Virus record (IMG/VR): IMGVR_UViG_3300047553_000184
Span: 1-30,968 of that record
Length of the DNA stretch: 30,968 bases
From: a virus
Lineage: Duplodnaviria > Caudoviricetes
Direction: 5' to 3' (one strand)
This document shows, one piece after another, positions 4,665 through 27,144 of this stretch (position 1 is its first letter; each line of letters begins with the position of its first letter). The position numbers were made by a program, and so were the translations under genes. The notes beneath the pieces were generated by a model. It made no database searches. It saw only the letters and a list, made by a program, of their open reading frames with translations, and was not told where the DNA came from.

Positions 4665-4807
4665 AAGTTGTTAAGTTTACGCAATAGACAAGAGATACCT
4701 TCGTAGTAGCCACCATCACTTGTGATGCGAGACTTGTACGCTTTTACGATATCCCAACCTTGACCCTTGTATAGACGGCTTCGAGTGCCAATTCCTACGC
4801 CTATCAT
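4661..4807 (-). CDS. Small protein, 48 aa, coupled to the fibre gene (not in ORF track)
   Basis: MIGVGIGTRSRLYKGQGWDIVKAYKSRITSDGGYYEGISCLLRKLNNL. Its stop overlaps the fibre ATG (ATGA). Confidence 0.7.
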   Translation of the reverse strand: MIGVGIGTRSRLYKGQGWDIVKAYKSRITSDGGYYEGISCLLRKLNNL

Positions 4808-4811
4808 ACGA

Positions 4812-5700: not shown

Positions 5701-5744
5701 AATTCTGAAAACTAATATGAATCAAGAACAACTACAAATGTACG

Positions 5745-14913: not shown

Positions 14914-16101
14914 TTATGCAAAGTAAAATAATCCCGGTCTATTTTTTGACTTACAATCTAAAGCGAGAGCAAGTGAGCAAACGCAATCGTCGTGTAGTCC
15001 ACTAGGTGCGCTATATCTCACACCTGTACGAGTGTACTCATACTCGAAAGACTCCATCTCATATCCGATAGGGTCTTCGGGAAAGCGTATCTCGTTGCGT
15101 TGTACTGCAAGAACTAGACCTTCGATGAGTTGCTGCTTCGATTGCGATGTGAACTTGAAACCTTGCGCACGAGAACACGCTCTTTGAATCTGTTCTACGA
15201 CAGGGTCTCCTACGCCAGTAGAGTCGATGTAAGCAGGTGTGTTCTGTACGAGTTGAATGATGCGTTGTTGAGTTTGCCCCCAATCGCTTTGAAAGCGTTC
15301 GCAATATGATACGCAATTATTCGCATCGATACCAATTATCACCGTGTAGTCGGTGTACTTTGCTAAGTCAATTCCATACGCTACGACTTGAGAGTTTGTA
15401 GTAGGTTGGTAACAAGCACGAATCGAGTCAATACCAAATGGGTTTGATTTATCGTCTGCGGGTTCTGCTAGATACAACTCATCGAACACGTGTTTCGGTA
15501 AGTCTCTCTTTGCTTGTTCTACTTCATCGAGTTGAAGTATGCCTTCATTGACTGCGTCGTATGCCGTAATCTTGAAGTACTCGTAGTCTTTCTCTCCTTG
15601 CTTTGCGCGTTCACCTAGTTTGTAGAACCAATTCTTTTTCCCTTTGACGTTTCCGATAAGTTTGCATTTGCCTTGTGTAGCCGTAAGAGTAGAACGAAGA
15701 GCGAACCAAGACTCTTCTCTCGCTCGTGATGCTTCGTCAAAGACACAAGCATAGACATCGTCACCGTATAGGTTGTCTGGCTTCTCGGCGCTCTTGAACT
15801 CTATTCTCGCACCTGTTGGAAGAGTCAACAACAACTTCGACTCATTCGTGATAAAGAAGTTCTTGTCGCTCACCTGCGTCTTCATACGACGATACGCAAT
15901 TTCTGCTTGTTGGTACACAGGTGCAACCCACCACACACTTTGACCATCTCGCAACTTGAGTGCTTGTTCGAAGAGCCAAATGATGTGTGATGCGGTCTTA
16001 CCTGTTTTAGTACTCGCCGCCGTGATTGTATACCTCGCTTGTGAGTCGAGTATGTTCTTTTGGTAAGAAGTCAATCTAGGGCGAATGTACTCTATTTGCA
16101 T
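14914..16101 (-). CDS. terL: Terminase large subunit
   Basis: YQ adenine-binding motif, Walker A (STKTGKT), Walker B (CVFDEA), nuclease motifs GIDLA, IDSTGVG and HDDCV. Confidence 0.93.
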   Translation of the reverse strand: MQIEYIRPRLTSYQKNILDSQARYTITAASTKTGKTASHIIWLFEQALKLRDGQSVWWVAPVYQQAEIAYRRMKTQVSDKNFFITNESKLLLTLPTGARIEFKSAEKPDNLYGDDVYACVFDEASRAREESWFALRSTLTATQGKCKLIGNVKGKKNWFYKLGERAKQGEKDYEYFKITAYDAVNEGILQLDEVEQAKRDLPKHVFDELYLAEPADDKSNPFGIDSIRACYQPTTNSQVVAYGIDLAKYTDYTVIIGIDANNCVSYCERFQSDWGQTQQRIIQLVQNTPAYIDSTGVGDPVVEQIQRACSRAQGFKFTSQSKQQLIEGLVLAVQRNEIRFPEDPIGYEMESFEYEYTRTGVRYSAPSGLHDDCVCSLALALDCKSKNRPGLFYFA

Positions 16102-17087
16102 ATGCTCTCGTAGAACTTAATTCGTTCGATATTCCACAACTTGATATCGTGAAACTTCTTGCAATAAGTAGCGTTTGAAGAACCTAAGTGCGAAGCGTTG
16201 CTCATCGCTTGTTTGATTGAGTCGTACCACTCGTCATTCTTTGCGAAGATGACACCACCATTGTCGATGTGGTTCAAGTATGGCTCACAAGCACTCACAA
16301 CGATAGGCAAGTCATATGCACTCGCTTCGAGAATCTTCAACTCACTCTTGCATGAATTGAACTTTGTTGATTGAAGAGGTGCGATTGCTACGTCGAAGTG
16401 TTTATAGACTTCACCGTAAGCGTTTGCGCTAGTGCCTCGTACGACGTGAAACCAATCACCTTTAAACATTGAGCAAATCGAATCCCAGATATCGCTTGGA
16501 GTATACCCACACAAGTAGAAGTCGATGAGACCTTCTTCACCTAGACGAGTGATGTCGTCGACGATGAGTTTCAAATCTTCGTGATGTGTGATACCACCAA
16601 CCCAACCGACTTTGAATTTCTCATTTGCTAGTCGTGAGTGTTTCCATTGTTCGTGTTCGTAGTCTAAGCAATTAGGCAGAACGATTGCGTTCTTGTTGTA
16701 CTGCTTGACTTGGTCGAGTAGTTGTGGCGTTGTGCAGGTCACACCATCTGCGTAGTGAAGAGCGTCTTTGATTGCGTTCTTGATTCCGTGACGATACGCC
16801 CAATAAGCGGGGTTGAATTTAGGCAACACCCAGTAGTCGTCAACGTCTACAACATACGGAGTCTTCGATTGAGCAATCTTCTTCAAGATGTCGTAGTGAT
16901 GCTTTCCTAGCCAACGATTAAAGACTACAAGGTCGTAGTTCTTAAAGTCGACTAGATTCATCATTGTATCGCTATCTTGAGCAATATCTATTGTAGCGTA
17001 GTCGTCGAGTTGTAGACGCATCAAAGGCGTATAAATTCGATGGTAGACTACGCCATTCATTCCGTCTGCTAGTGCTAGTATTCTCAT
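16092..17087 (-). CDS. GT-B fold glycosyltransferase
   Basis: 331 aa. Motifs VDVDDYW, PN, VGWVGGITH, and DVAIAPL...KSELKILEASAYDLPIVVS. Confidence 0.85.
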   Translation of the reverse strand: MRILALADGMNGVVYHRIYTPLMRLQLDDYATIDIAQDSDTMMNLVDFKNYDLVVFNRWLGKHHYDILKKIAQSKTPYVVDVDDYWVLPKFNPAYWAYRHGIKNAIKDALHYADGVTCTTPQLLDQVKQYNKNAIVLPNCLDYEHEQWKHSRLANEKFKVGWVGGITHHEDLKLIVDDITRLGEEGLIDFYLCGYTPSDIWDSICSMFKGDWFHVVRGTSANAYGEVYKHFDVAIAPLQSTKFNSCKSELKILEASAYDLPIVVSACEPYLNHIDNGGVIFAKNDEWYDSIKQAMSNASHLGSSNATYCKKFHDIKLWNIERIKFYESICK

Positions 17088-20441: not shown

Positions 20442-20945
20442 CTATTCTTCGTACGCAACACATCGCTCTCTTCTTTCAGTATGTGAATCGACGACGATAG
20501 ATTCTTTGTTGCTATAAGAATCCAATAGTTCGAGAGTTTGTTGATGGGTTTTGGCGAATTGTCTGTCATATTCTATCAAATCTTGTGTTTGACGTACGCT
20601 ATGTATGATTGTTGAATGGTCGCGATTTATGATTCTACCTATCGACTCAAATGACATACGCAAAGTCTTTCTACAAATGTAGTTAAAAGTGTGACGAGCG
20701 TACAAGACGTGTTGTCGTCTGTTGTGAGAATAAATGTCATCGGGTGTGATATCCCATATTTGACAAATGCTTCTCATCACATCTTCCCATTGTGCTTTGT
20801 TTCTAGTTATGTCAATCTTTGGTCGCAAGATTTCTCTCTTTAGACTTTGAATCATTTTCTCATAGTTGTTCTTTTGCTCGATTAATAACAAGCGTTGTCT
20901 TTTTAATTCTTGTTTTAATAGATGTATTTCTTGATAGTGTGTCAT
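20442..20945 (-). CDS. DnaA C-terminal (domain IV) HTH protein
   Basis: YARH...SIGRIINRDHSTIIHS signature and an N-terminal coiled coil. Confidence 0.85.
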   Translation of the reverse strand: MTHYQEIHLLKQELKRQRLLLIEQKNNYEKMIQSLKREILRPKIDITRNKAQWEDVMRSICQIWDITPDDIYSHNRRQHVLYARHTFNYICRKTLRMSFESIGRIINRDHSTIIHSVRQTQDLIEYDRQFAKTHQQTLELLDSYSNKESIVVDSHTERRERCVAYEE

Positions 20946-21808
20946 ATTTTTTTGTGTTTAGAATCTATAATCATTGGCGTTGTGTATGTCCATTTGACGC
21001 GATGATGTAATCTATTTGAAGTAAAACCCATCATTGAAACTTGAATGGAAGATGGATGGTACAAAACGCTATGAAATGATTTTACGTATGTACCACTACC
21101 TAAATAAGCGTCAGTCATACCGCCCTTTTGGCTCTGTGTAGCGGCCTGTTCTAATCCTATAAATGGCAACGTCAAAAATAAATGTCCTCTACTTCCTAGA
21201 GTTGTATAGGTATTGACATCTTCATTGATTGAGCCAAAAAATTGAAAATACCTATCTACTGAACAGATGAAACTATTCATACATTTCCTCGCATTATGTT
21301 TGTAATTGCTTATCATACCACATCCTGCTCCGCCAATAAAGTCACCACCTTGCGCAAATGCAATACTAGTACAAGTTGTAGACTTAAAAAAGTCTAAATA
21401 AATTTGAAAATACTTGTCTAGATTCTTAGCGAATCCACTTGTCATATACTTGCCATCGATAAAGCGATATCTGAATGAAGTGTAGTCGTCGTCAAGTTGT
21501 ATAAAGTATTTTATACCTATTTGTTTTGCAATGTGAAAACAAGCGTTCCTAGCGTGAATTATGACTTTGCGATTGTCAAAATTATTCCCCTCGTCTATTG
21601 AGTCAGCCATCGCTTTCTTGTCAAACACTTTTACCATATCGTCGCCATACTTTCGTAAGTAAGTATCAAGTGTTTTGTCTTCATTGTCAACAATTAGATA
21701 GATTGAACCTGTATAGCCACACTTTTTAAGTGTCTGCAATGTCTTGACGTTGTCAGGTCTACCGTGAGTCAAAATAAATACCGCAAAATTATTGTCCATA
21801 TTCTTCAA
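20942..21808 (-). CDS. GT-A fold glycosyltransferase, TAGT/GREB1-like
   Basis: Motifs FILTHGRP, ARN, QLDDDY (DxD), MNSF, INEDV and GGMT. Confidence 0.75.
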   Translation of the reverse strand: MKNMDNNFAVFILTHGRPDNVKTLQTLKKCGYTGSIYLIVDNEDKTLDTYLRKYGDDMVKVFDKKAMADSIDEGNNFDNRKVIIHARNACFHIAKQIGIKYFIQLDDDYTSFRYRFIDGKYMTSGFAKNLDKYFQIYLDFFKSTTCTSIAFAQGGDFIGGAGCGMISNYKHNARKCMNSFICSVDRYFQFFGSINEDVNTYTTLGSRGHLFLTLPFIGLEQAATQSQKGGMTDAYLGSGTYVKSFHSVLYHPSSIQVSMMGFTSNRLHHRVKWTYTTPMIIDSKHKKI

Positions 21809-22187
21809 GATATTGAGTTTTTATTTCGTCACATAGTTTGACGTAGCCGTATTGTATTGCTTTCTCAAAATCTATAATCACTAAAGCAGAGCGTTCCATC
21901 AAATGTTGCATCTCTTTACTAGCGTGTGAGTAGTAGTCAGCAATTTTCTCATAGTTAAAAACAAGATGCCTCATTGTTGCATCAATCAAAAACGATTTTT
22001 CATCTTCATTCAATGTAGAAGATTCAATTTCTTTAATTAAGCGTTGAGTCTTTGATTTGTCACAAAGTTCAAGTATGTGAGGTTTCCTATTCTTTGGTTC
22101 GTAAATAGGTGCTTCAATCTTACTCGTGTACTTTTGTTCTTCTTCATTAGGTGCGTAGTCTGCACCAAATAGATTAATTTGTTTCAT
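21789..22187 (-). CDS. Hypothetical partner of the TAGT-like enzyme
   Basis: 132 aa, overlaps the GT start and shares its AT-rich composition. Motif KIADYY...SALVIIDFEKAI. Confidence 0.7.
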   Translation of the reverse strand: MKQINLFGADYAPNEEEQKYTSKIEAPIYEPKNRKPHILELCDKSKTQRLIKEIESSTLNEDEKSFLIDATMRHLVFNYEKIADYYSHASKEMQHLMERSALVIIDFEKAIQYGYVKLCDEIKTQYLEEYGQ

Positions 22188-23416
22188 ATGCGTTCTTTGT
22201 ATTCTGTTAGTTTGCCTTCAAAGGTTGTTGGTATCGTACAACACTCACCGTTTCTATTCTTTGCTATTATCAACTCGGCTTCTTCAACGTCTGGCTTCTC
22301 TTGGTCATAGTATGCAGGTCTAAAAGGAAACATCACAATATCTGCGTCTTGCTCAATCGCACCGCTCTCTCTCAAGTCACTCAACATCGGTCTTTTGTCT
22401 GCTCTCTCTTCGCTCTTACGAGACAACTGCGCAAGAACAATGACCGTGATTTTCAATTCTTTTGCCAGTAGTTTAAGCCCTCGTGATATCTCTGCTATCT
22501 CTTGCTCACGATTTGCTTTTGTACCTTTGATTAATTGAATGTAGTCAATCACTAGCAAGTCAAGACCTTTGCGAGACTTGTGTAGTTTTGCTTTTGCTTT
22601 TATTTGGGCGATAGAAGTATCAACGTCATCGTCTATGTGAAACTCGATAGATTGATTGTTTGCGACGTGTATCACTTTGTCGATTTCATTTTGTTCTAGA
22701 CGACCATTGCGAATCTTCCAATTCTCGATAGAACCTATCAAAGACAAGTATCGTTTCGCGAGTTGTTCGTTGCTCATCTCAAGAGATAAGAATAGTGCTT
22801 TGTAGTTATACTTTGCGAAGTCTTTTGTGAGAGTGAGAGCGATTGCAGTCTTACCCATTCCCGGTCTACCTGCTACTACAATCAAATCACCTTCGTTGTA
22901 ACCTCCAATGTATTTGTCTAAATATCTCCATCCTGTTTGTTTACCTGTTAGCGCACCACCTTTGAGACTATTGTCAACGATTTGGTCAACGACTTTGTTT
23001 GTGACTTTGACGATTGAGTCTGGCTCTTTGTGAGTTGAAAATGTAGTCTCTTCAAGAATGTTTTGAATGTCTTTGACCATCTCGCTCAAGTCTTTTGTCA
23101 AGTTCAAATTTGACACTCTATCTACAAGTGTTTTCTTTATGTACTCGTATTCAAGAGTCTTCAAGTGTACTTTGATATTTGACATTCCACTTGCTTCTTG
23201 TTGAATACGAATAATCTCAAGAACTTCTACTCGTGTAAAGTACTTTGATAAAGTCACAAGGTCAACAGGTTGATTCTCGTAGTAGAGTTCTGTCATCGCG
23301 TCTACAACTCGACGAGATAAATCTTGAGTAAACCAATTCTTATTGATTTGTGGTAAGAAGTGTCTTGCATCATTGTAGAAGAGCAAGTTTGATAGTATCA
23401 TTTGTTCTAGATTCAT
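22184..23416 (-). CDS. dnaB: Replicative DNA helicase, DnaB-like
   Basis: GRPGMGKT, SLEM, VIDYIQL, LAQLSR, SDLRESGAIEQDAD, KNRNG. Confidence 0.96.
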   Translation of the reverse strand: MNLEQMILSNLLFYNDARHFLPQINKNWFTQDLSRRVVDAMTELYYENQPVDLVTLSKYFTRVEVLEIIRIQQEASGMSNIKVHLKTLEYEYIKKTLVDRVSNLNLTKDLSEMVKDIQNILEETTFSTHKEPDSIVKVTNKVVDQIVDNSLKGGALTGKQTGWRYLDKYIGGYNEGDLIVVAGRPGMGKTAIALTLTKDFAKYNYKALFLSLEMSNEQLAKRYLSLIGSIENWKIRNGRLEQNEIDKVIHVANNQSIEFHIDDDVDTSIAQIKAKAKLHKSRKGLDLLVIDYIQLIKGTKANREQEIAEISRGLKLLAKELKITVIVLAQLSRKSEERADKRPMLSDLRESGAIEQDADIVMFPFRPAYYDQEKPDVEEAELIIAKNRNGECCTIPTTFEGKLTEYKERI

Positions 23417-23994
23417 AGTGTTGCAAGTTTATGAGTATTTGTTGAGACTTTCAAGTTGTTTGGTTTCCACGTACGAACTGCGCTCTTCCAATCTTTCATT
23501 TTGTTTTTACCTATCATCCATCCTTTCGACTCGTAGAAATCAAAGAACTTGTTTGAGACATCGTTCATACCTATTGAATCCATATATTCTCTCAACTCGT
23601 CTAGAGTTGGTTTAGTAAAACGATTACTCTTTTTATTATATATATCTTCATTTTCATTTTCATTTTCCATATGTTGTTCATATGATAAAGATGTGTTTTT
23701 CATATCTTCTTTCTTTTTACGATTATTTGCTCTTGATTCACTATACTTCTTTCTCTTCTCAAACTCTTCTCTCATACGCAAATTGTAAAATCCTTCTTCG
23801 CATTTCTCGAATTTGTCAAAGATATCTTCATCATATGTCTCACATATCTTCAACATATCTTTCTCGCTTAGTACACCTTTTTGATGTTGTATGCAAAGTA
23901 GACGAATGTATTTGCCTACTTGTTCATTTGACATCAATGTTGTGCCTGTTAAAAAGTCGCTAGTATAAAATAATACTGCTGGGTCTTTGCTCAT
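23413..23994 (-). CDS. Replication initiator (YdaU/DUF1376-like N-terminus)
   Basis: Start reassigned to ATG 23994 (MSKDPAVLFYTSDFL). C-terminal FFDFYESKGW...MKDWKSAVRTW. Directly upstream of dnaB. Confidence 0.8.
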   Translation of the reverse strand: MSKDPAVLFYTSDFLTGTTLMSNEQVGKYIRLLCIQHQKGVLSEKDMLKICETYDEDIFDKFEKCEEGFYNLRMREEFEKRKKYSESRANNRKKKEDMKNTSLSYEQHMENENENEDIYNKKSNRFTKPTLDELREYMDSIGMNDVSNKFFDFYESKGWMIGKNKMKDWKSAVRTWKPNNLKVSTNTHKLATL

Positions 23995-24004
23995 TTTTTG
24001 TATT

Positions 24005-24054
24005 AAAAAACCCTCGTACAAATACCGAAGTGCGAGTTCGATACTTGCCGAGGG
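24005..24054 (-). terminator. Leader terminator/attenuator hairpin before the initiator
   Basis: CCCTCG-GCAAGTATCGAA-[CTCGCAC]-TTCGGTATTTGT-A-CGAGGG-TTTTTT, ending 10 nt before the ATG. Confidence 0.8.
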
Positions 24055-24095
24055 CAAATGTCTTTGGTTAGTTGTCTCGCACACAACTCTAATAC
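24005..24095 (-). ncRNA. Structured leader/small RNA with two hairpins and complementary loops
   Basis: Hairpin 1 AGTTGT-[GTGCGAG]-ACAACT. Its loop is the reverse complement of the terminator loop. Bounded by a promoter and a U-tract. Confidence 0.6.
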
Positions 24096-24099
24096 TTTA

Positions 24100-24130
24100 C
24101 AAAAGTAGTACTTTGTAGATAAATAGCAAA
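24100..24130 (-). promoter_or_regulatory. Bacteroidota primary-sigma promoter for the replication operon
   Basis: TTTG-N19-TACTTTTG. Confidence 0.8.
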
Positions 24131-24331
24131 CTATTTTTTCGTTGCGATTGAGTATCTACCAAATCCCTCGGTCTCATCACATACAATGTCGAGACCTTCT
24201 TTGTGTCTGAGCGTATGAATAAGCGCGGCGAGTCGAAACGAGCCATACAAATTCAAAGCGTCGATTGGTGTGATTGACTTACCATTCATCAAATGAGTCT
24301 TCACTTTCTTGAGTTGCGATTCTTTTTTCAT
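24131..24331 (-). CDS. Winged helix-turn-helix protein
   Basis: 66 aa, SITPIDALNLYGSFRLAALIHTLR. Confidence 0.75.
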   Translation of the reverse strand: MKKESQLKKVKTHLMNGKSITPIDALNLYGSFRLAALIHTLRHKEGLDIVCDETEGFGRYSIATKK

Positions 24332-24720
24332 ATTTGTCTGTGATTAATTTTTAATTTGTCAAGTCCTTTTGTGTCGTGATACAAAGTTTCAAATACTACA
24401 TTACGTATACCACTTTGTTTAATAATTTTTGAGCATTGCATACAAGGCGACATCGTGACGTACATAGTTGCATCTTGAGCGTTTATACCTGCTTTTAAGA
24501 TAGCGTTCATTTCTGCGTGAATGACTTCGTCTTTCGTCACATCGTTCTCTTCGCACTCGTTACAAAATCCACTAGGTGTACCATTGTAACCATAAGCCAC
24601 GATATTTCTGTCTTTGACTATGATTGCACCCACTTTTGCACGATTGCATCTTGAAAGTTTAGAGACGGTGTGAGCGATGTCCATATACATCACATCGAAT
24701 TGTTCACTTCTCGTCATCAT
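24328..24720 (-). CDS. dCMP deaminase (ComEB-like)
   Basis: KVGAII...GYNG, HAE and PCxxC zinc motifs. Confidence 0.9.
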   Translation of the reverse strand: MMTRSEQFDVMYMDIAHTVSKLSRCNRAKVGAIIVKDRNIVAYGYNGTPSGFCNECEENDVTKDEVIHAEMNAILKAGINAQDATMYVTMSPCMQCSKIIKQSGIRNVVFETLYHDTKGLDKLKINHRQI

Positions 24721-24796
24721 ATTTACCTATGTAAAATCCAAGAACGAACGCTAGTAGAATAAATCCGTACCAAATTGCCATTTGTGTATTTGTCAT
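24704..24796 (-). CDS. Single-pass membrane peptide, 30 aa (not in ORF track)
   Basis: MTNTQMAIWYGFILLAFVLGFYIGKYDDEK. ATGA-coupled. Confidence 0.5.
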   Translation of the reverse strand: MTNTQMAIWYGFILLAFVLGFYIGKYDDEK

Positions 24797-25128
24797 TGTG
24801 TTCTAGTTTTAACTACTTGTACTATTTCATAGAAATTGTCACCGTATACTTCGTAGTATGTGTATAAACCACCCAAAGGAAATAATTGCAAATCCATTGA
24901 ATAAGATTCTTGTAGTTGAGAGCAGACATCTGAAAGCGTAGGTTCGCTATCAAATACACAAATTATGTCGTTGTCTTCGTTGATAAGAACATAAGACATA
25001 CCATTCAGTCGATTTGATAAGAACTCAGCAAATATCTTCTTCTCGAATCTACCTACTATTTCTTGATTGTGATACACTCGATACTCGATAGAGCCATTCA
25101 CATTTGCTTCTACTATTTGTGTATTCAT
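24793..25128 (-). CDS. Hypothetical protein
   Basis: 111 aa, coupled on both sides. Confidence 0.7.
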   Translation of the reverse strand: MNTQIVEANVNGSIEYRVYHNQEIVGRFEKKIFAEFLSNRLNGMSYVLINEDNDIICVFDSEPTLSDVCSQLQESYSMDLQLFPLGGLYTYYEVYGDNFYEIVQVVKTRTQ

Positions 25129-25337
25129 CTTGCTTTGCCTTTATAGAATTTGAAGTCATAGATTGCTTTTGAGAACTCATCAAAATTCGCGATTGGTTCA
25201 TCTTTCTCGAATTTATAAGGTGTTGCCTCTGGCATCTCACGAAGTCTCTTAGAGTTTCTCTTGATGCAATGGTGGGCATAACCTATCGCAAACGCAACAG
25301 GTGTGCCAATGATTAGATAAATGATGTCTAGTGCCAT
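25125..25337 (-). CDS. Small membrane-anchored protein
   Basis: 70 aa with an N-terminal hydrophobic segment. Confidence 0.65.
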   Translation of the reverse strand: MALDIIYLIIGTPVAFAIGYAHHCIKRNSKRLREMPEATPYKFEKDEPIANFDEFSKAIYDFKFYKGKAR

Positions 25338-25351
25338 AGTTATATAAATAG

Positions 25352-25380
25352 TGGGGGCTTTTACACCCCCATTTTTTTTT
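25352..25380. terminator. Intergenic GC hairpin, possibly a bidirectional terminator
   Basis: TGGGGG-CTTTTACA-CCCCCA followed by a T-run on +. The minus strand has only CTATTT after the stem. Confidence 0.55.
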
Positions 25381-25642
25381 AGAATTTGTATTGAGTAAAA
25401 AGTTCAAATGTCATACCGGGAGTGATTTGCAAATCTCCATTCTCATCTTTGCTCATATAGATATAATTCTTTTGAGTCAACTGTGAGATGTACCCTTTCA
25501 CTTGCTCTTGAGTTAATTGATTTACAAATTCAATCACTTCATTGAAGTAAGTGAAACATCCACGAGTGTACTTGTAAGATGCGTCTACGATTGCTTTGAG
25601 AACTAGAGTTTCGTTTTCGTTTAAGTTGTTGTTGTTTTTCAT
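25379..25642 (-). CDS. Hypothetical winged-helix-like protein
   Basis: 87 aa with its own promoter. EQVKGYISQLTQKNYI helix-wing pattern. Confidence 0.65.
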   Translation of the reverse strand: MKNNNNLNENETLVLKAIVDASYKYTRGCFTYFNEVIEFVNQLTQEQVKGYISQLTQKNYIYMSKDENGDLQITPGMTFELFTQYKF

Positions 25643-25661
25643 ATCGCTTTGTATTATGATT

Positions 25662-25692
25662 CAAAACTACACCTTTTTTTTATATATGCAAT
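25662..25692 (-). promoter_or_regulatory. Bacteroidota primary-sigma promoter
   Basis: ATTG-N19-TAGTTTTG with an A-rich upstream region. Confidence 0.75.
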
Positions 25693-25726
25693 ACACTCGA
25701 AAACTTTTTTTTCTATTTATTTTGTT

Positions 25727-26365
25727 TTATGACAATTCTATGACACTCTTGAGCATATTACCTGCGTAGTATAACTTCTCGTCAATCAAGTCTTTCACGT
25801 CGTCAAGTGTTATATTTACTACGTGCAACTTGTGTGAATCTTGAAATCTAGGGTCGTACGAAACAAAGAACGCGTTCTCACAAGCAGACGCAATCATACC
25901 CATTTGTACTTGCCAGTAGTACTCGCTATGAAGCGACTTCAAGTCTTCGTTTGTTTTGATTGAGAAGTTGCGAAGATGAACACCGCTATTGAAAGGACAT
26001 TTTATCTCAACGATAAAGTCATCACCTAACGCATCGGGAGAATATCCACCAAACTCACCGTATTCGATGAAGACGAACGTCTCACCTCCGTAGTAAGTAG
26101 CGAGAGTGTTGAAAGGGTCAAACGCTTCGTATGCTTGTTTCTCGTGTTCTTTACCCCAATCAAGAGCGCGACCATAGATTTCGTTTCTTTGGTTCGTGAG
26201 AATCTCTGCACCTTTCTCGTAGATAAAAGTCTTCGCGGTCTCGCTCAAGTACTCCGATTTGTTTCTCGGAGTACCCATCAACTTGTGAATTTGTGAAGCG
26301 GTAAATCTTGTGCGTCGCAACTCTAACCATTGCTCTTCACTTTGTGTAGTCGTAACCATTCTCAA
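25727..26365 (-). CDS. YqaJ/lambda-type exonuclease
   Basis: WLELR...FTAS, WGKEHE, SPD, EIKCP, YYWQVQ. Confidence 0.9.
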   Translation of the reverse strand: MRMVTTTQSEEQWLELRRTRFTASQIHKLMGTPRNKSEYLSETAKTFIYEKGAEILTNQRNEIYGRALDWGKEHEKQAYEAFDPFNTLATYYGGETFVFIEYGEFGGYSPDALGDDFIVEIKCPFNSGVHLRNFSIKTNEDLKSLHSEYYWQVQMGMIASACENAFFVSYDPRFQDSHKLHVVNITLDDVKDLIDEKLYYAGNMLKSVIELS

Positions 26366-26369
26366 TCAT

Positions 26370-26903
26370 TCATTTGACACTAGACAACAATTTGTAGTCA
26401 ACTTCACTCAATGTGTACTTTTGAGTAATGTCACTAATCTTACCACCTTTTTGAATGTGTTCTACTGCACGTTGCCAGTTTGGGTGTTTAGGTGTGAGAG
26501 TTTCTTTTTGTGGTGTGCGTCCCATTGCTTTCTCTCCATCGTCATCGTCGTCGATGTTAAGACCTAAGATTGCACCTAGAGCGTAGCGTCGTGCGTAAGT
26601 GATTGCAGAACCCATCGCTTGAGGGTCGTTTTGTTTTGCGACAGGCATCTTGTACGACGCTTCAATCCATTCACCGCTCTCGCTATGAATTAAGATAGTT
26701 GTCAAAGCGTCATCGTCTGGGAGTTGTGCAAACGCAAGACCGCACTCACTCAATGGTTTTTGAATAGTGTCTAAGATGTTCGCTAAAGATGCGTACTTAG
26801 ATTTGAAAAATGGGTTGTTTGCTTCTTTCGACACTTTGCCGATTGATGCTTGAAACTTGCACAGAGCAAGTCCAATGTTCTTGATTGATTCGCTTTTGTT
26901 CAT
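26370..26903 (-). CDS. erf: ERF-family single-strand annealing protein
   Basis: NPFFKSKYA...QAMGSAITYARRY...DDDDG. Start reassigned to ATG 26903. Confidence 0.9.
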   Translation of the reverse strand: MNKSESIKNIGLALCKFQASIGKVSKEANNPFFKSKYASLANILDTIQKPLSECGLAFAQLPDDDALTTILIHSESGEWIEASYKMPVAKQNDPQAMGSAITYARRYALGAILGLNIDDDDDGEKAMGRTPQKETLTPKHPNWQRAVEHIQKGGKISDITQKYTLSEVDYKLLSSVK

Positions 26904-26904
26904 A

Positions 26905-27096
26905 TTAGTTTTCGATTTGTTCAATGATTTCTTTTGCCGTCTTGAATACTTTGACCGCCGTAGGGTGATACACGTCACCTTTCAAATACTTACGAATAGT
27001 AGGGAGAGACAAACCTGTTCTCTCGTGGATAGTCTTTTGAAGACCGTGATAGTGTTTGTGTTTTAGTTCTTCTTGAATTTGCTCTATGTTTGTCAT
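26905..27096 (-). CDS. Small HTH (Cro-like) regulator
   Basis: IHERTGLSLPTIRKYLKG. First gene after an early promoter. Confidence 0.7.
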   Translation of the reverse strand: MTNIEQIQEELKHKHYHGLQKTIHERTGLSLPTIRKYLKGDVYHPTAVKVFKTAKEIIEQIEN

Positions 27097-27102
27097 ACCT
27101 CA

Positions 27103-27133
27103 CAAAAGTACAACAATTCTTTCATAATGCAAA
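27103..27133 (-). promoter_or_regulatory. Bacteroidota primary-sigma promoter (early operon)
   Basis: TTTG-N19-TACTTTTG. Confidence 0.8.
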
Positions 27134-27144
27134 CAAAAAGAAAA

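Follow-up and report, generated by a model that had tools for sequence, protein, structure and literature searches.

Genomic Context and Anatomy of the Leader

The window (the whole stretch of DNA analysed, 30,968 bp) is a complete phage record with direct terminal repeats, and all of its recognisable genes lie on the minus strand. A putative replication initiator of 193 aa (23413–23994, minus strand) gave a weak match to DUF1376 and matches to primosomal-protein PHROGs, and its stop is overlapped by the gene for a DnaB-like replicative helicase (22184–23416, minus strand; PF03796, E 5.7e-89). Relatives of the initiator in Porphyromonas phages are annotated as 'replication initiation protein', and a Bacteroidota host is suggested by the promoter type together with the cultured phages that carry the same leader design (see below). 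On the 5' side lies a 66-aa winged-helix gene (24131–24331, minus strand; PF14090), a neighbour rather than an obligatory part of the element described below, as such a gene was found 5' of only 13 of 132 elements.

The interval between the winged-helix gene and the initiator carries a leader element that was read directly on the minus strand. The first-pass annotation of this DNA had placed a promoter before the leader. It is present and of the Bacteroidota sigmaA type, with a TTTG -33 box (24127–24130, minus strand; we take TTTG to be the -33 consensus of such promoters) at which the winged-helix gene ends, and, 19 nt further on, the -7 box TACTTTTG (TAnnTTTG; 24100–24107, minus strand). No sigma-70-type promoter was listed at the leader by the promoter scan. 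In the accessible text of a study on Flavobacterium (PMC9723704), the -7 box occupies positions -12 to -5, which puts the predicted start site at 24095 and the length of the terminated RNA at about 91 nt.

The two hairpins, their loops, the U-tract and the distance to the start codon that the same annotation had claimed proved exact. Hairpin H1 (24070–24088, minus strand; sequence and fold) has a stem of 6 bp formed by AGTTGT (24088–24083) and ACAACT (24075–24070), and it displays loop L1, GUGCGAG (24076–24082, minus strand), the 5' half of a putative address code. A single-stranded linker (24055–24069, minus strand), assigned from spacing and geometry as part of the conserved L1–L2 distance, leads to hairpin H2 (24011–24054, minus strand; sequence and fold), an 18-bp intrinsic-terminator stem with three G-U pairs (24041/24025, 24044/24022 and 24048/24018) and one bulge (A at 24017). 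The tip of H2 is loop L2, CUCGCAC (24030–24036, minus strand), the 3' half of the code, which covaries with L1. The U6 tract (24005–24010, minus strand), identified from sequence, is the predicted 3' end of the RNA, and after 10 nt the initiator ATG follows at 23994. L1 and L2 are exact reverse complements and, as had been stated, the complementarity ends at the loop edges, where the flanking positions form U/U and A/A mismatches. The computed energy of the L1:L2 duplex was -10.5 kcal/mol. The fold of 23985–24110 had an MFE of -34.2 kcal/mol (z = -3.77), and none of 200 shuffles was equally stable. A small alternative hairpin within the 5' arm of H2 (24043–24059, minus strand; -6.5 kcal/mol) was seen in nascent folds; a counterpart at -3 kcal/mol or better occurred in only 22 of 77 homologues, and in the clade of the window this hairpin may, judging from the folding model, delay the zipping of the terminator.

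No promoter box was found between U6 and the initiator ATG in the window scan, so the initiator appears reachable only through the terminator of the leader. A -7-only box at 23824, inside the initiator gene, could serve dnaB. The succession of promoter, hairpin with U-tract and gene, no promoter lying between them, is that of an intrinsic-terminator attenuator. With consensus boxes, no promoter was found on the plus strand in 22583–26416 of the window.

Just 3' of the winged-helix gene, the -7 box is overlapped by an imperfect inverted repeat (24093–24116, minus strand) that could be an operator; inverted repeats of at least 6 bp were present in 32 of 77 homologous promoters, a figure that stands without a background rate. 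Several homologues have an additional ATG immediately 3' of the U-tract, 10–20 nt before the real start, and the ORF that begins there is very short or out of frame; positions 23995–24004 of the window hold no such ATG.

Loop Complementarity in Homologous Leaders

A single 7-mer match could be due to chance, since this 7-mer occurs elsewhere in the window. Three collections of homologues were assembled without regard to the loops: by a terminator pattern scan, by scans for promoter plus terminator and by initiator homology. In the terminator scan, a complement of at least 7 nt between the 5' part and the terminator tip was present in 16 of the 24 matches with a -7 box, compared with 6 of 93 matches lacking the box and 2.8% of mismatched pairs. 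The promoter-plus-terminator scans revealed such complements in 78 of 92 and 32 of 45 strong elements, against cross-pair (mismatched) rates of 2.8% and 4.9%, respectively. Among 36 loci chosen by initiator homology, promoter and terminator were detected in 28, and 22 of these had at least 6 Watson–Crick loop pairs; three of the other six were inspected, and each keeps 6 pairs through one G-U. The leader was absent in seven of the 36 loci (L026–L029, L031, L045 and L046), and in L022 it was present though missed by the detector. The loop–loop complementarity is thus beyond chance, and the covariation check in homologous leaders that had been proposed with the first-pass annotation gave a strong signal.

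The homologues form two subtypes. In type A, which includes the window, the loops are about 7 nt long; in type B, a code of 8–9 nt lies inside a first loop of 14 nt, and the second loop has 10 nt. Of 85 representatives, five were dropped because no enclosing fold was found and three more were doubtful, which left 77; in the cluster, geometry and flank analyses, seven of 139 elements were dropped, leaving 132. In sequence-only alignments, both-side changes were seen at every one of the 7 kiss pairs in type A and at 6 of the 8 in type B, and the covariation score was reached by 0 of 500 shuffles; these alignments consist of elements pre-selected for at least 6 complementary bases, the unbiased figures being those of the loop-blind scans and the protein-picked loci. 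The three loop-proximal H1 pairs likewise all showed both-side changes in an alignment of pre-selected elements. The 140 elements contained 70 loop strings, some overlapping and a few due to chance, and 29 distinct 7-mer codes remained after filtering. The central kiss pairs took up to five pair types, and G-U was tolerated. At the first two pairs, the kiss edge was conserved as G-C (32/40) and U-A (36/40), and the closing pairs were U-A/A-U in 22 of 26. From the comparison of sequences, the L1:L2 pairing is real and conserved.

The L1–L2 distance had a median of 50 nt (IQR 49–53 nt; 80 of 85 representatives). The scan patterns allowed a much wider range, and this tight spacing argues for pairing within one molecule. 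Of the two strands, the sense strand gave the more stable fold in 73 of 77 homologues, and 192 of 1271 H2 pairs were G-U. Both observations indicate that the element acts at the RNA level, and they bear out the earlier remark that the wobble pairs work on this strand. Antisense -7 boxes, by the consensus, were found in 15 of 77 homologues, a frequency not above the background of 20%, and only 1 of 77 was accompanied by a -33 box. In many homologues, the stem starts close to the predicted +1, and the next ATG follows a median of 11 nt after the fifth U (10th–90th percentile, 2–21 nt). Within 45 nt after the terminator, complements of L2 that could serve as a third pairing site near the start codon occurred at the cross-pair level; the window has none, and a 7-nt complement of L2 after the terminator was present in 1 of 50 type A elements (L010).

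Type B elements carry conserved unpaired motifs beside the code (alignment A3), AUA in loop 1 and a GA-rich internal loop in H2. These motifs may make tertiary contacts or form a protein or ligand site.

Distribution and Gene Neighbourhood

Two narrow patterns matched about 500 and 140 IMG/VR stretches, chance hits included. The element was located 5' of 48 clusters of downstream proteins and 3' of 47 upstream clusters. The largest downstream group was of the DUF6291 type (39 of 132), followed by NUMOD4/HNH proteins, a small ORF and DUF1376-type, HTH_36 and Lin1244_N proteins; a scan of 13 downstream proteins gave matches to DUF6291, DUF1376, HTH_36, Lin1244_N and NUMOD4/HNH and a weak ParB match, and five had no match. 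The first-pass description of a replication-initiator leader stands in that the initiator of the window appears reachable only via the terminator, but the element is not specific to this initiator and moves as a cassette. The code of the window was found 5' of four different gene clusters, and the DUF6291 initiator cluster lies 3' of 18 code strings. Such mixing indicates that the neighbouring protein does not read the code, and recognition of the code by the initiator or by the upstream winged-helix protein was rejected on this ground.

A search of 45 records with two covariance models revealed two copies in two records, and the copies in each of the two-copy genomes (those two records and the cultured phage tooticki6-1) carry different codes. 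In one complete 62-kb phage (G309, elements L562 and L566), two replication modules each have their own leader with a different code, one module containing an HTH_36 protein and the other a DUF6291 protein followed by a helicase-like ORF. The second leader of tooticki6-1 is located 5' of a NUMOD4/HNH-type gene, and in many relatives (L008–L019; 1866–2500 in the full-length loci) a NUMOD4/HNH endonuclease-like ORF lies between leader and initiator. Homing by such a gene could help to move the cassette.

The leader was present in 10 of 11 cultured-phage loci found by initiator homology or by DNA similarity around the initiator. The carriers are the Flavobacterium phages tooticki6-1, lillamy9-1, hemulen6-1, mumin6-1, snusmum6-1, morran9-1 and elemoA, the Cellulophaga phages phi19:3 and phi13:2 and the Olleya phage Harreka_1. 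Several of these leaders are identical to each other. The covariance models scored the tested ones weakly (best E 0.01–0.05), which marks them as distant members of the design. No leader was found in the 6.2 kb examined of the Nonlabens phage P12024S, and DNA searches of cultured phages with two leaders returned chance matches only. Phages of the Flavobacterium hosts LMO6 and LMO9 carry three codes, each before a different replication module. In Baltic Flavobacterium phages (L623–L625 compared with L617, L622 and L626), the module after a near-identical leader is replaced wholesale, initiator-primase against helicase-VirE, and the code changes too.

Neither a tyrosine integrase (PF00589, 0/32) nor a resolvase (PF00239, 0/32) was found in the carriers, and an HTH_3 match above the cut-off was obtained in two of 32. 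The study that isolated them (PMC7077304, accessible text) detected no lysogeny genes in the mumin phages and calls tooticki6-1 lytic. In the 11 of 64 parts of the GTDB bacterial genomes that were pattern-scanned, none of nine strong terminators had a kiss. The models R1 and R2 gave no match in sets of 5, 151 and 151 bacterial genomes, the two larger searches having scored only 27 candidates per genome, a depth that could miss prophage copies.

Cassette Exchange and Change of Code

Twenty-one tree-linked pairs of elements had both 200-nt flanks at least 85% identical. In 13 of them, 0–7 bases differed inside the element and the code was kept. The code changed in the remaining eight: seven had 19–36 differences in the element, and in one the differences were nearly confined to the loops. 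Not all swap pairs are independent of each other, as L052 occurs twice. In the clearest swap pairs, identity was 0.88–1.0 in the 50 nt on either side and 0.69–0.76 inside, with the breaks at the -7 box (the upstream boundary) and the U-tract (the downstream boundary). Conversely, 97%-identical elements were found in unrelated flanks. By these alignments, the cassette is exchanged between the -7 box and the U-tract independently of the initiator family.

Among near-identical elements, compensated changes affected 15 of 352 kiss pairs, frequently two or three pairs together, as compared with 6 of 1280 stem pairs, and code changes of two and three pairs occurred in elements otherwise 90–97% identical. 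The total share of changed base pairs was similar (4.3% in the kiss and 4.8% in the stems). Per-site change in the flank-matched pairs was only modestly higher in the kiss (0.15) than in stem (0.097) and unpaired positions (0.119). These last two comparisons count against the mechanism proposed below, in which selection for new codes is presumed.

Proposed Mechanism

The reading that we favour, giving it a little less than an even chance, is that of a kissing-loop attenuator, likely acting in cis, with shut-off in trans by its own terminated RNA. The host sigmaA is predicted to start transcription at about 24095, after which H1 would fold and display L1. About 50 nt later, L2 would emerge and pair with L1, the pairing being indicated by covariation and its timing presumed. 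The kiss would tie the tip of H2 to H1, the linker would be too short for the full 18-bp stem and the terminator base would be left open, so that RNA polymerase would enter initiator-dnaB while the start-codon region beside the stem would stay open as well. Transcripts without the kiss would end at U6 as RNA of about 91 nt. As its level rises, this RNA might bind through its loops to L1 or L2 of newly made transcripts that carry an identical code, so that the kiss in cis would fail and transcription would terminate. Such a trans step would time and limit the expression of the replication genes and would suppress a later-arriving phage of the same code, and this suppression would select for new codes and for cassette swapping.

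The role of the kiss as an antiterminator in cis, which accords with the earlier suggestion that loop–loop pairing decides between termination and read-through, is probable from modelling. In folds lacking the last 12 nt of H2, the L1:L2 pairing dominated in 35 of the 50 elements of type A and in 25 of the 27 of type B, whereas with the full H2 stem it dominated in none of 77; these nascent folds follow a nested model, as ViennaRNA cannot score pseudoknots. A rough geometric model was built on assumed dimensions of helices and linker. For the window, the kiss together with a full H2 takes up 0.9–1.0 of the linker contour length, a share that falls to about 0.5 when only 12 bp have formed. Among the homologues, about twice the linker length is needed with a closed lower H1, and an opened lower H1 gives a borderline fit (median 0.78–0.87). 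No conserved classical antiterminator was found (median gain of 2.2 against a cost of 11.7 kcal/mol). With no conserved alternative helix paying for the opening of the terminator base, the kiss is the only conserved switch candidate found.

The trans step is favoured by the changed cassettes within matched flanks, by the compensated kiss pairs in near-identical elements and by the three codes among phages of the same Flavobacterium hosts. Several points weaken it. As the geometry is borderline, the two loops of a completed RNA might pair with each other, which would leave neither free to act in trans. With no integrase found and cultured carriers called lytic, there would be no lysogen in which a repressing RNA could persist. 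That the two leaders differ in code in each of the three two-copy genomes speaks against one immunity RNA serving the whole genome. A further point against this step comes from engineered pT181 attenuators, the specificity of which does not depend on the loop alone (PMC3753616, accessible text).

Relation to Known Systems

Rfam 15 gave no matches in the window at the gathering score and none at E up to 10 in 23900–24200. It gave none in 20 homologous loci either, and 20 more yielded two weak snoRNA chance matches outside the elements, in line with the first-pass failure to assign the RNA to a named family. Fremin et al. likewise drew on IMG/VR, and 1241 of their candidate structured RNAs are predicted to contain terminators (PMC10690425, accessible text); the words 'kissing' and 'Bacteroid' had no match in the main text of that paper, the alignment supplements of which may hold an unnamed entry. 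The literature searched, motif surveys included and subscription journals outside its scope, contained no description of the leader in the text accessible. By sequence comparison, these leaders make up a real RNA family of Bacteroidota phages that was met with neither in Rfam nor in the literature searched, and to which a regulatory function is ascribed by inference.

The guanidine-IV riboswitch is a close counterpart in build. As described in the accessible text of PMC11611296, it also comprises about 100 nt with a 5' hairpin, a long terminator hairpin and a tip-to-tip kissing loop, and has no classical overlapping antiterminator; its kiss sterically hinders the terminator, the linker becoming shorter as P2 grows. 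It differs in that its kiss nucleotides are highly conserved, whereas the core of the leader kiss varies over the 29 codes. Moreover, guanidine drives its kiss and it precedes a mepA-type exporter gene, whereas no ligand is known for the leader, which precedes phage replication genes and had no exporter among the 13 downstream proteins scanned. If the cis mechanism is right, the leader would represent a natural case in which the steric kissing-loop principle of this riboswitch operates without a ligand.

The trans step would follow the logic of the P4 CI RNA, a short leader-derived RNA that pairs with an upstream complement and ends its own replication operon early (PMC4825925, accessible text). 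The upstream target of CI (seqA) has its likeness in L1, complementary to L2 on the same leader. Unlike P4, which has a second target (seqC) downstream, the leader showed no downstream site, and CI is processed from a longer transcript in the lysogen whereas the leader RNA would end at an intrinsic terminator carrying the pairing loop. P4 also integrates and forms lysogens, in contrast to the 32 carriers without an integrase match. Judged by this analogy, P4-like logic would explain the cassette swapping, but the lytic lifestyle and a finished RNA that may kiss itself make it less likely. P1/P7 c4 presumably belongs with P4 immunity. By analogy, the leader is best classed as a transcriptional attenuator that would work in cis like guanidine-IV and perhaps in trans like P4 CI.

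The plasmid systems with which the leader had initially been compared, pT181 and ColIb-P9 (the latter reportedly with a repZ pseudoknot), fit poorly, because they depend on a counter-transcribed antisense RNA, and the frequency of antisense boxes among the leaders does not exceed the background. They share loop–loop recognition controlling a replication initiator, and in the accessible text of PMC3753616 loop variants can give specificity groups. However, complementarity to a counter-transcribed RNA is automatic, whereas both loops of the leader lie on one transcript and each code change takes two separate mutations.

Alternative Explanations

An attenuator acting in cis only is a possible reading, albeit on balance an unlikely one. 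The kiss would set or adjust read-through according to how fast the polymerase elongates, to Mg2+, or to the binding of a host protein or small ligand where the loop edges are conserved; the short RNA would then be a by-product, with a code that drifts or hitchhikes. Covariation, spacing and nascent folds fit it equally well, the guanidine-IV riboswitch operates in this way (PMC11611296, accessible text), and the conserved kiss edges and closing pairs, like the unrelated codes in copies of one genome, agree with it. It leaves unexplained the different whole cassettes in nearly identical flanks and the two- and three-pair code changes in elements of 90–97% identity, and the kiss core seems too variable for a typical aptamer. 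The attenuator with trans shut-off would account for the exchange. If extended, it leads to a tentative proposal, credible but more doubtful than not: an RNA-only exclusion and timing system of lytic phages, in which the leader would serve as promoter cassette, as a kissing-loop antiterminator that needs no ligand and, after termination, as its own repressor in trans. The code of 6–9 bases would set exclusion groups, which co-infecting phages would swap in the manner of lambdoid immunity modules, with no need for a repressor protein, an antisense gene or lysogeny.

It is improbable that the product that matters is a stable sRNA of about 91 nt with another job, e.g., as a decoy for a host protein or defence system, the genes being reached by leak or by a protein antiterminator. 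Its own promoter, the strong terminator and a stem near the predicted +1 in many homologues would suit such an RNA, and the kiss is perhaps just compatible with a full H2 when the lower H1 opens; however, the element leads replication modules in both freshwater and cultured phages, with the ATG a median of 11 nt after the fifth U, and such a position suits a cis element. Very unlikely is the same fold with another output, in which the kiss would either act mainly on translation, holding the stem away from the start region of the first gene, or promote termination. With the ATG 2–21 nt after the fifth U, the stem would overlap the ribosome footprint, and initiation in Bacteroidota does not rely on Shine–Dalgarno sequences (PMC9723704, accessible text), yet the U-tract is kept even in elements found by protein homology alone, and sterics favour a kiss against the terminator rather than with it. 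Hardly credible at all is a plasmid-type antisense system, or a DNA inverted-repeat operator or origin read by the initiator or the winged-helix protein. The element does precede an initiator and the inverted 7-mers could be half-sites, but this reading is largely refuted by the background level of antisense boxes, the better folding of the sense strand, the free combination of codes and gene clusters and the G-U pairs accepted in the kiss.

The family is widespread and heads replication modules in Bacteroidota phages. If the favoured attenuator is correct, it would offer an answer to how lytic phages without a repressor time their replication and compete in co-infection, a question made directly testable by the cultured phages of Flavobacterium sp. 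LMO6 and LMO9 with their three codes. The many short-code attenuators occurring in nature would, in addition, provide a useful set of tools for controlling genes in Bacteroidota.

Other Features of the Window Phage

A ParB-like gene and a TET-associated glycosyltransferase (TAGT) gene directly follow dnaB (20942–22187, minus strand), and a group 1 glycosyltransferase gene precedes the terminase gene (16092–17087, minus strand). This gene content suggests a DNA-hypermodification pathway in a 31-kb phage. The intergenic gaps examined included 4665–4811, 5703–5744 and 26979–27144, and two-element promoter-like boxes were few in intergenic gaps, being found near 27110, 25669, 24107 and 20375.
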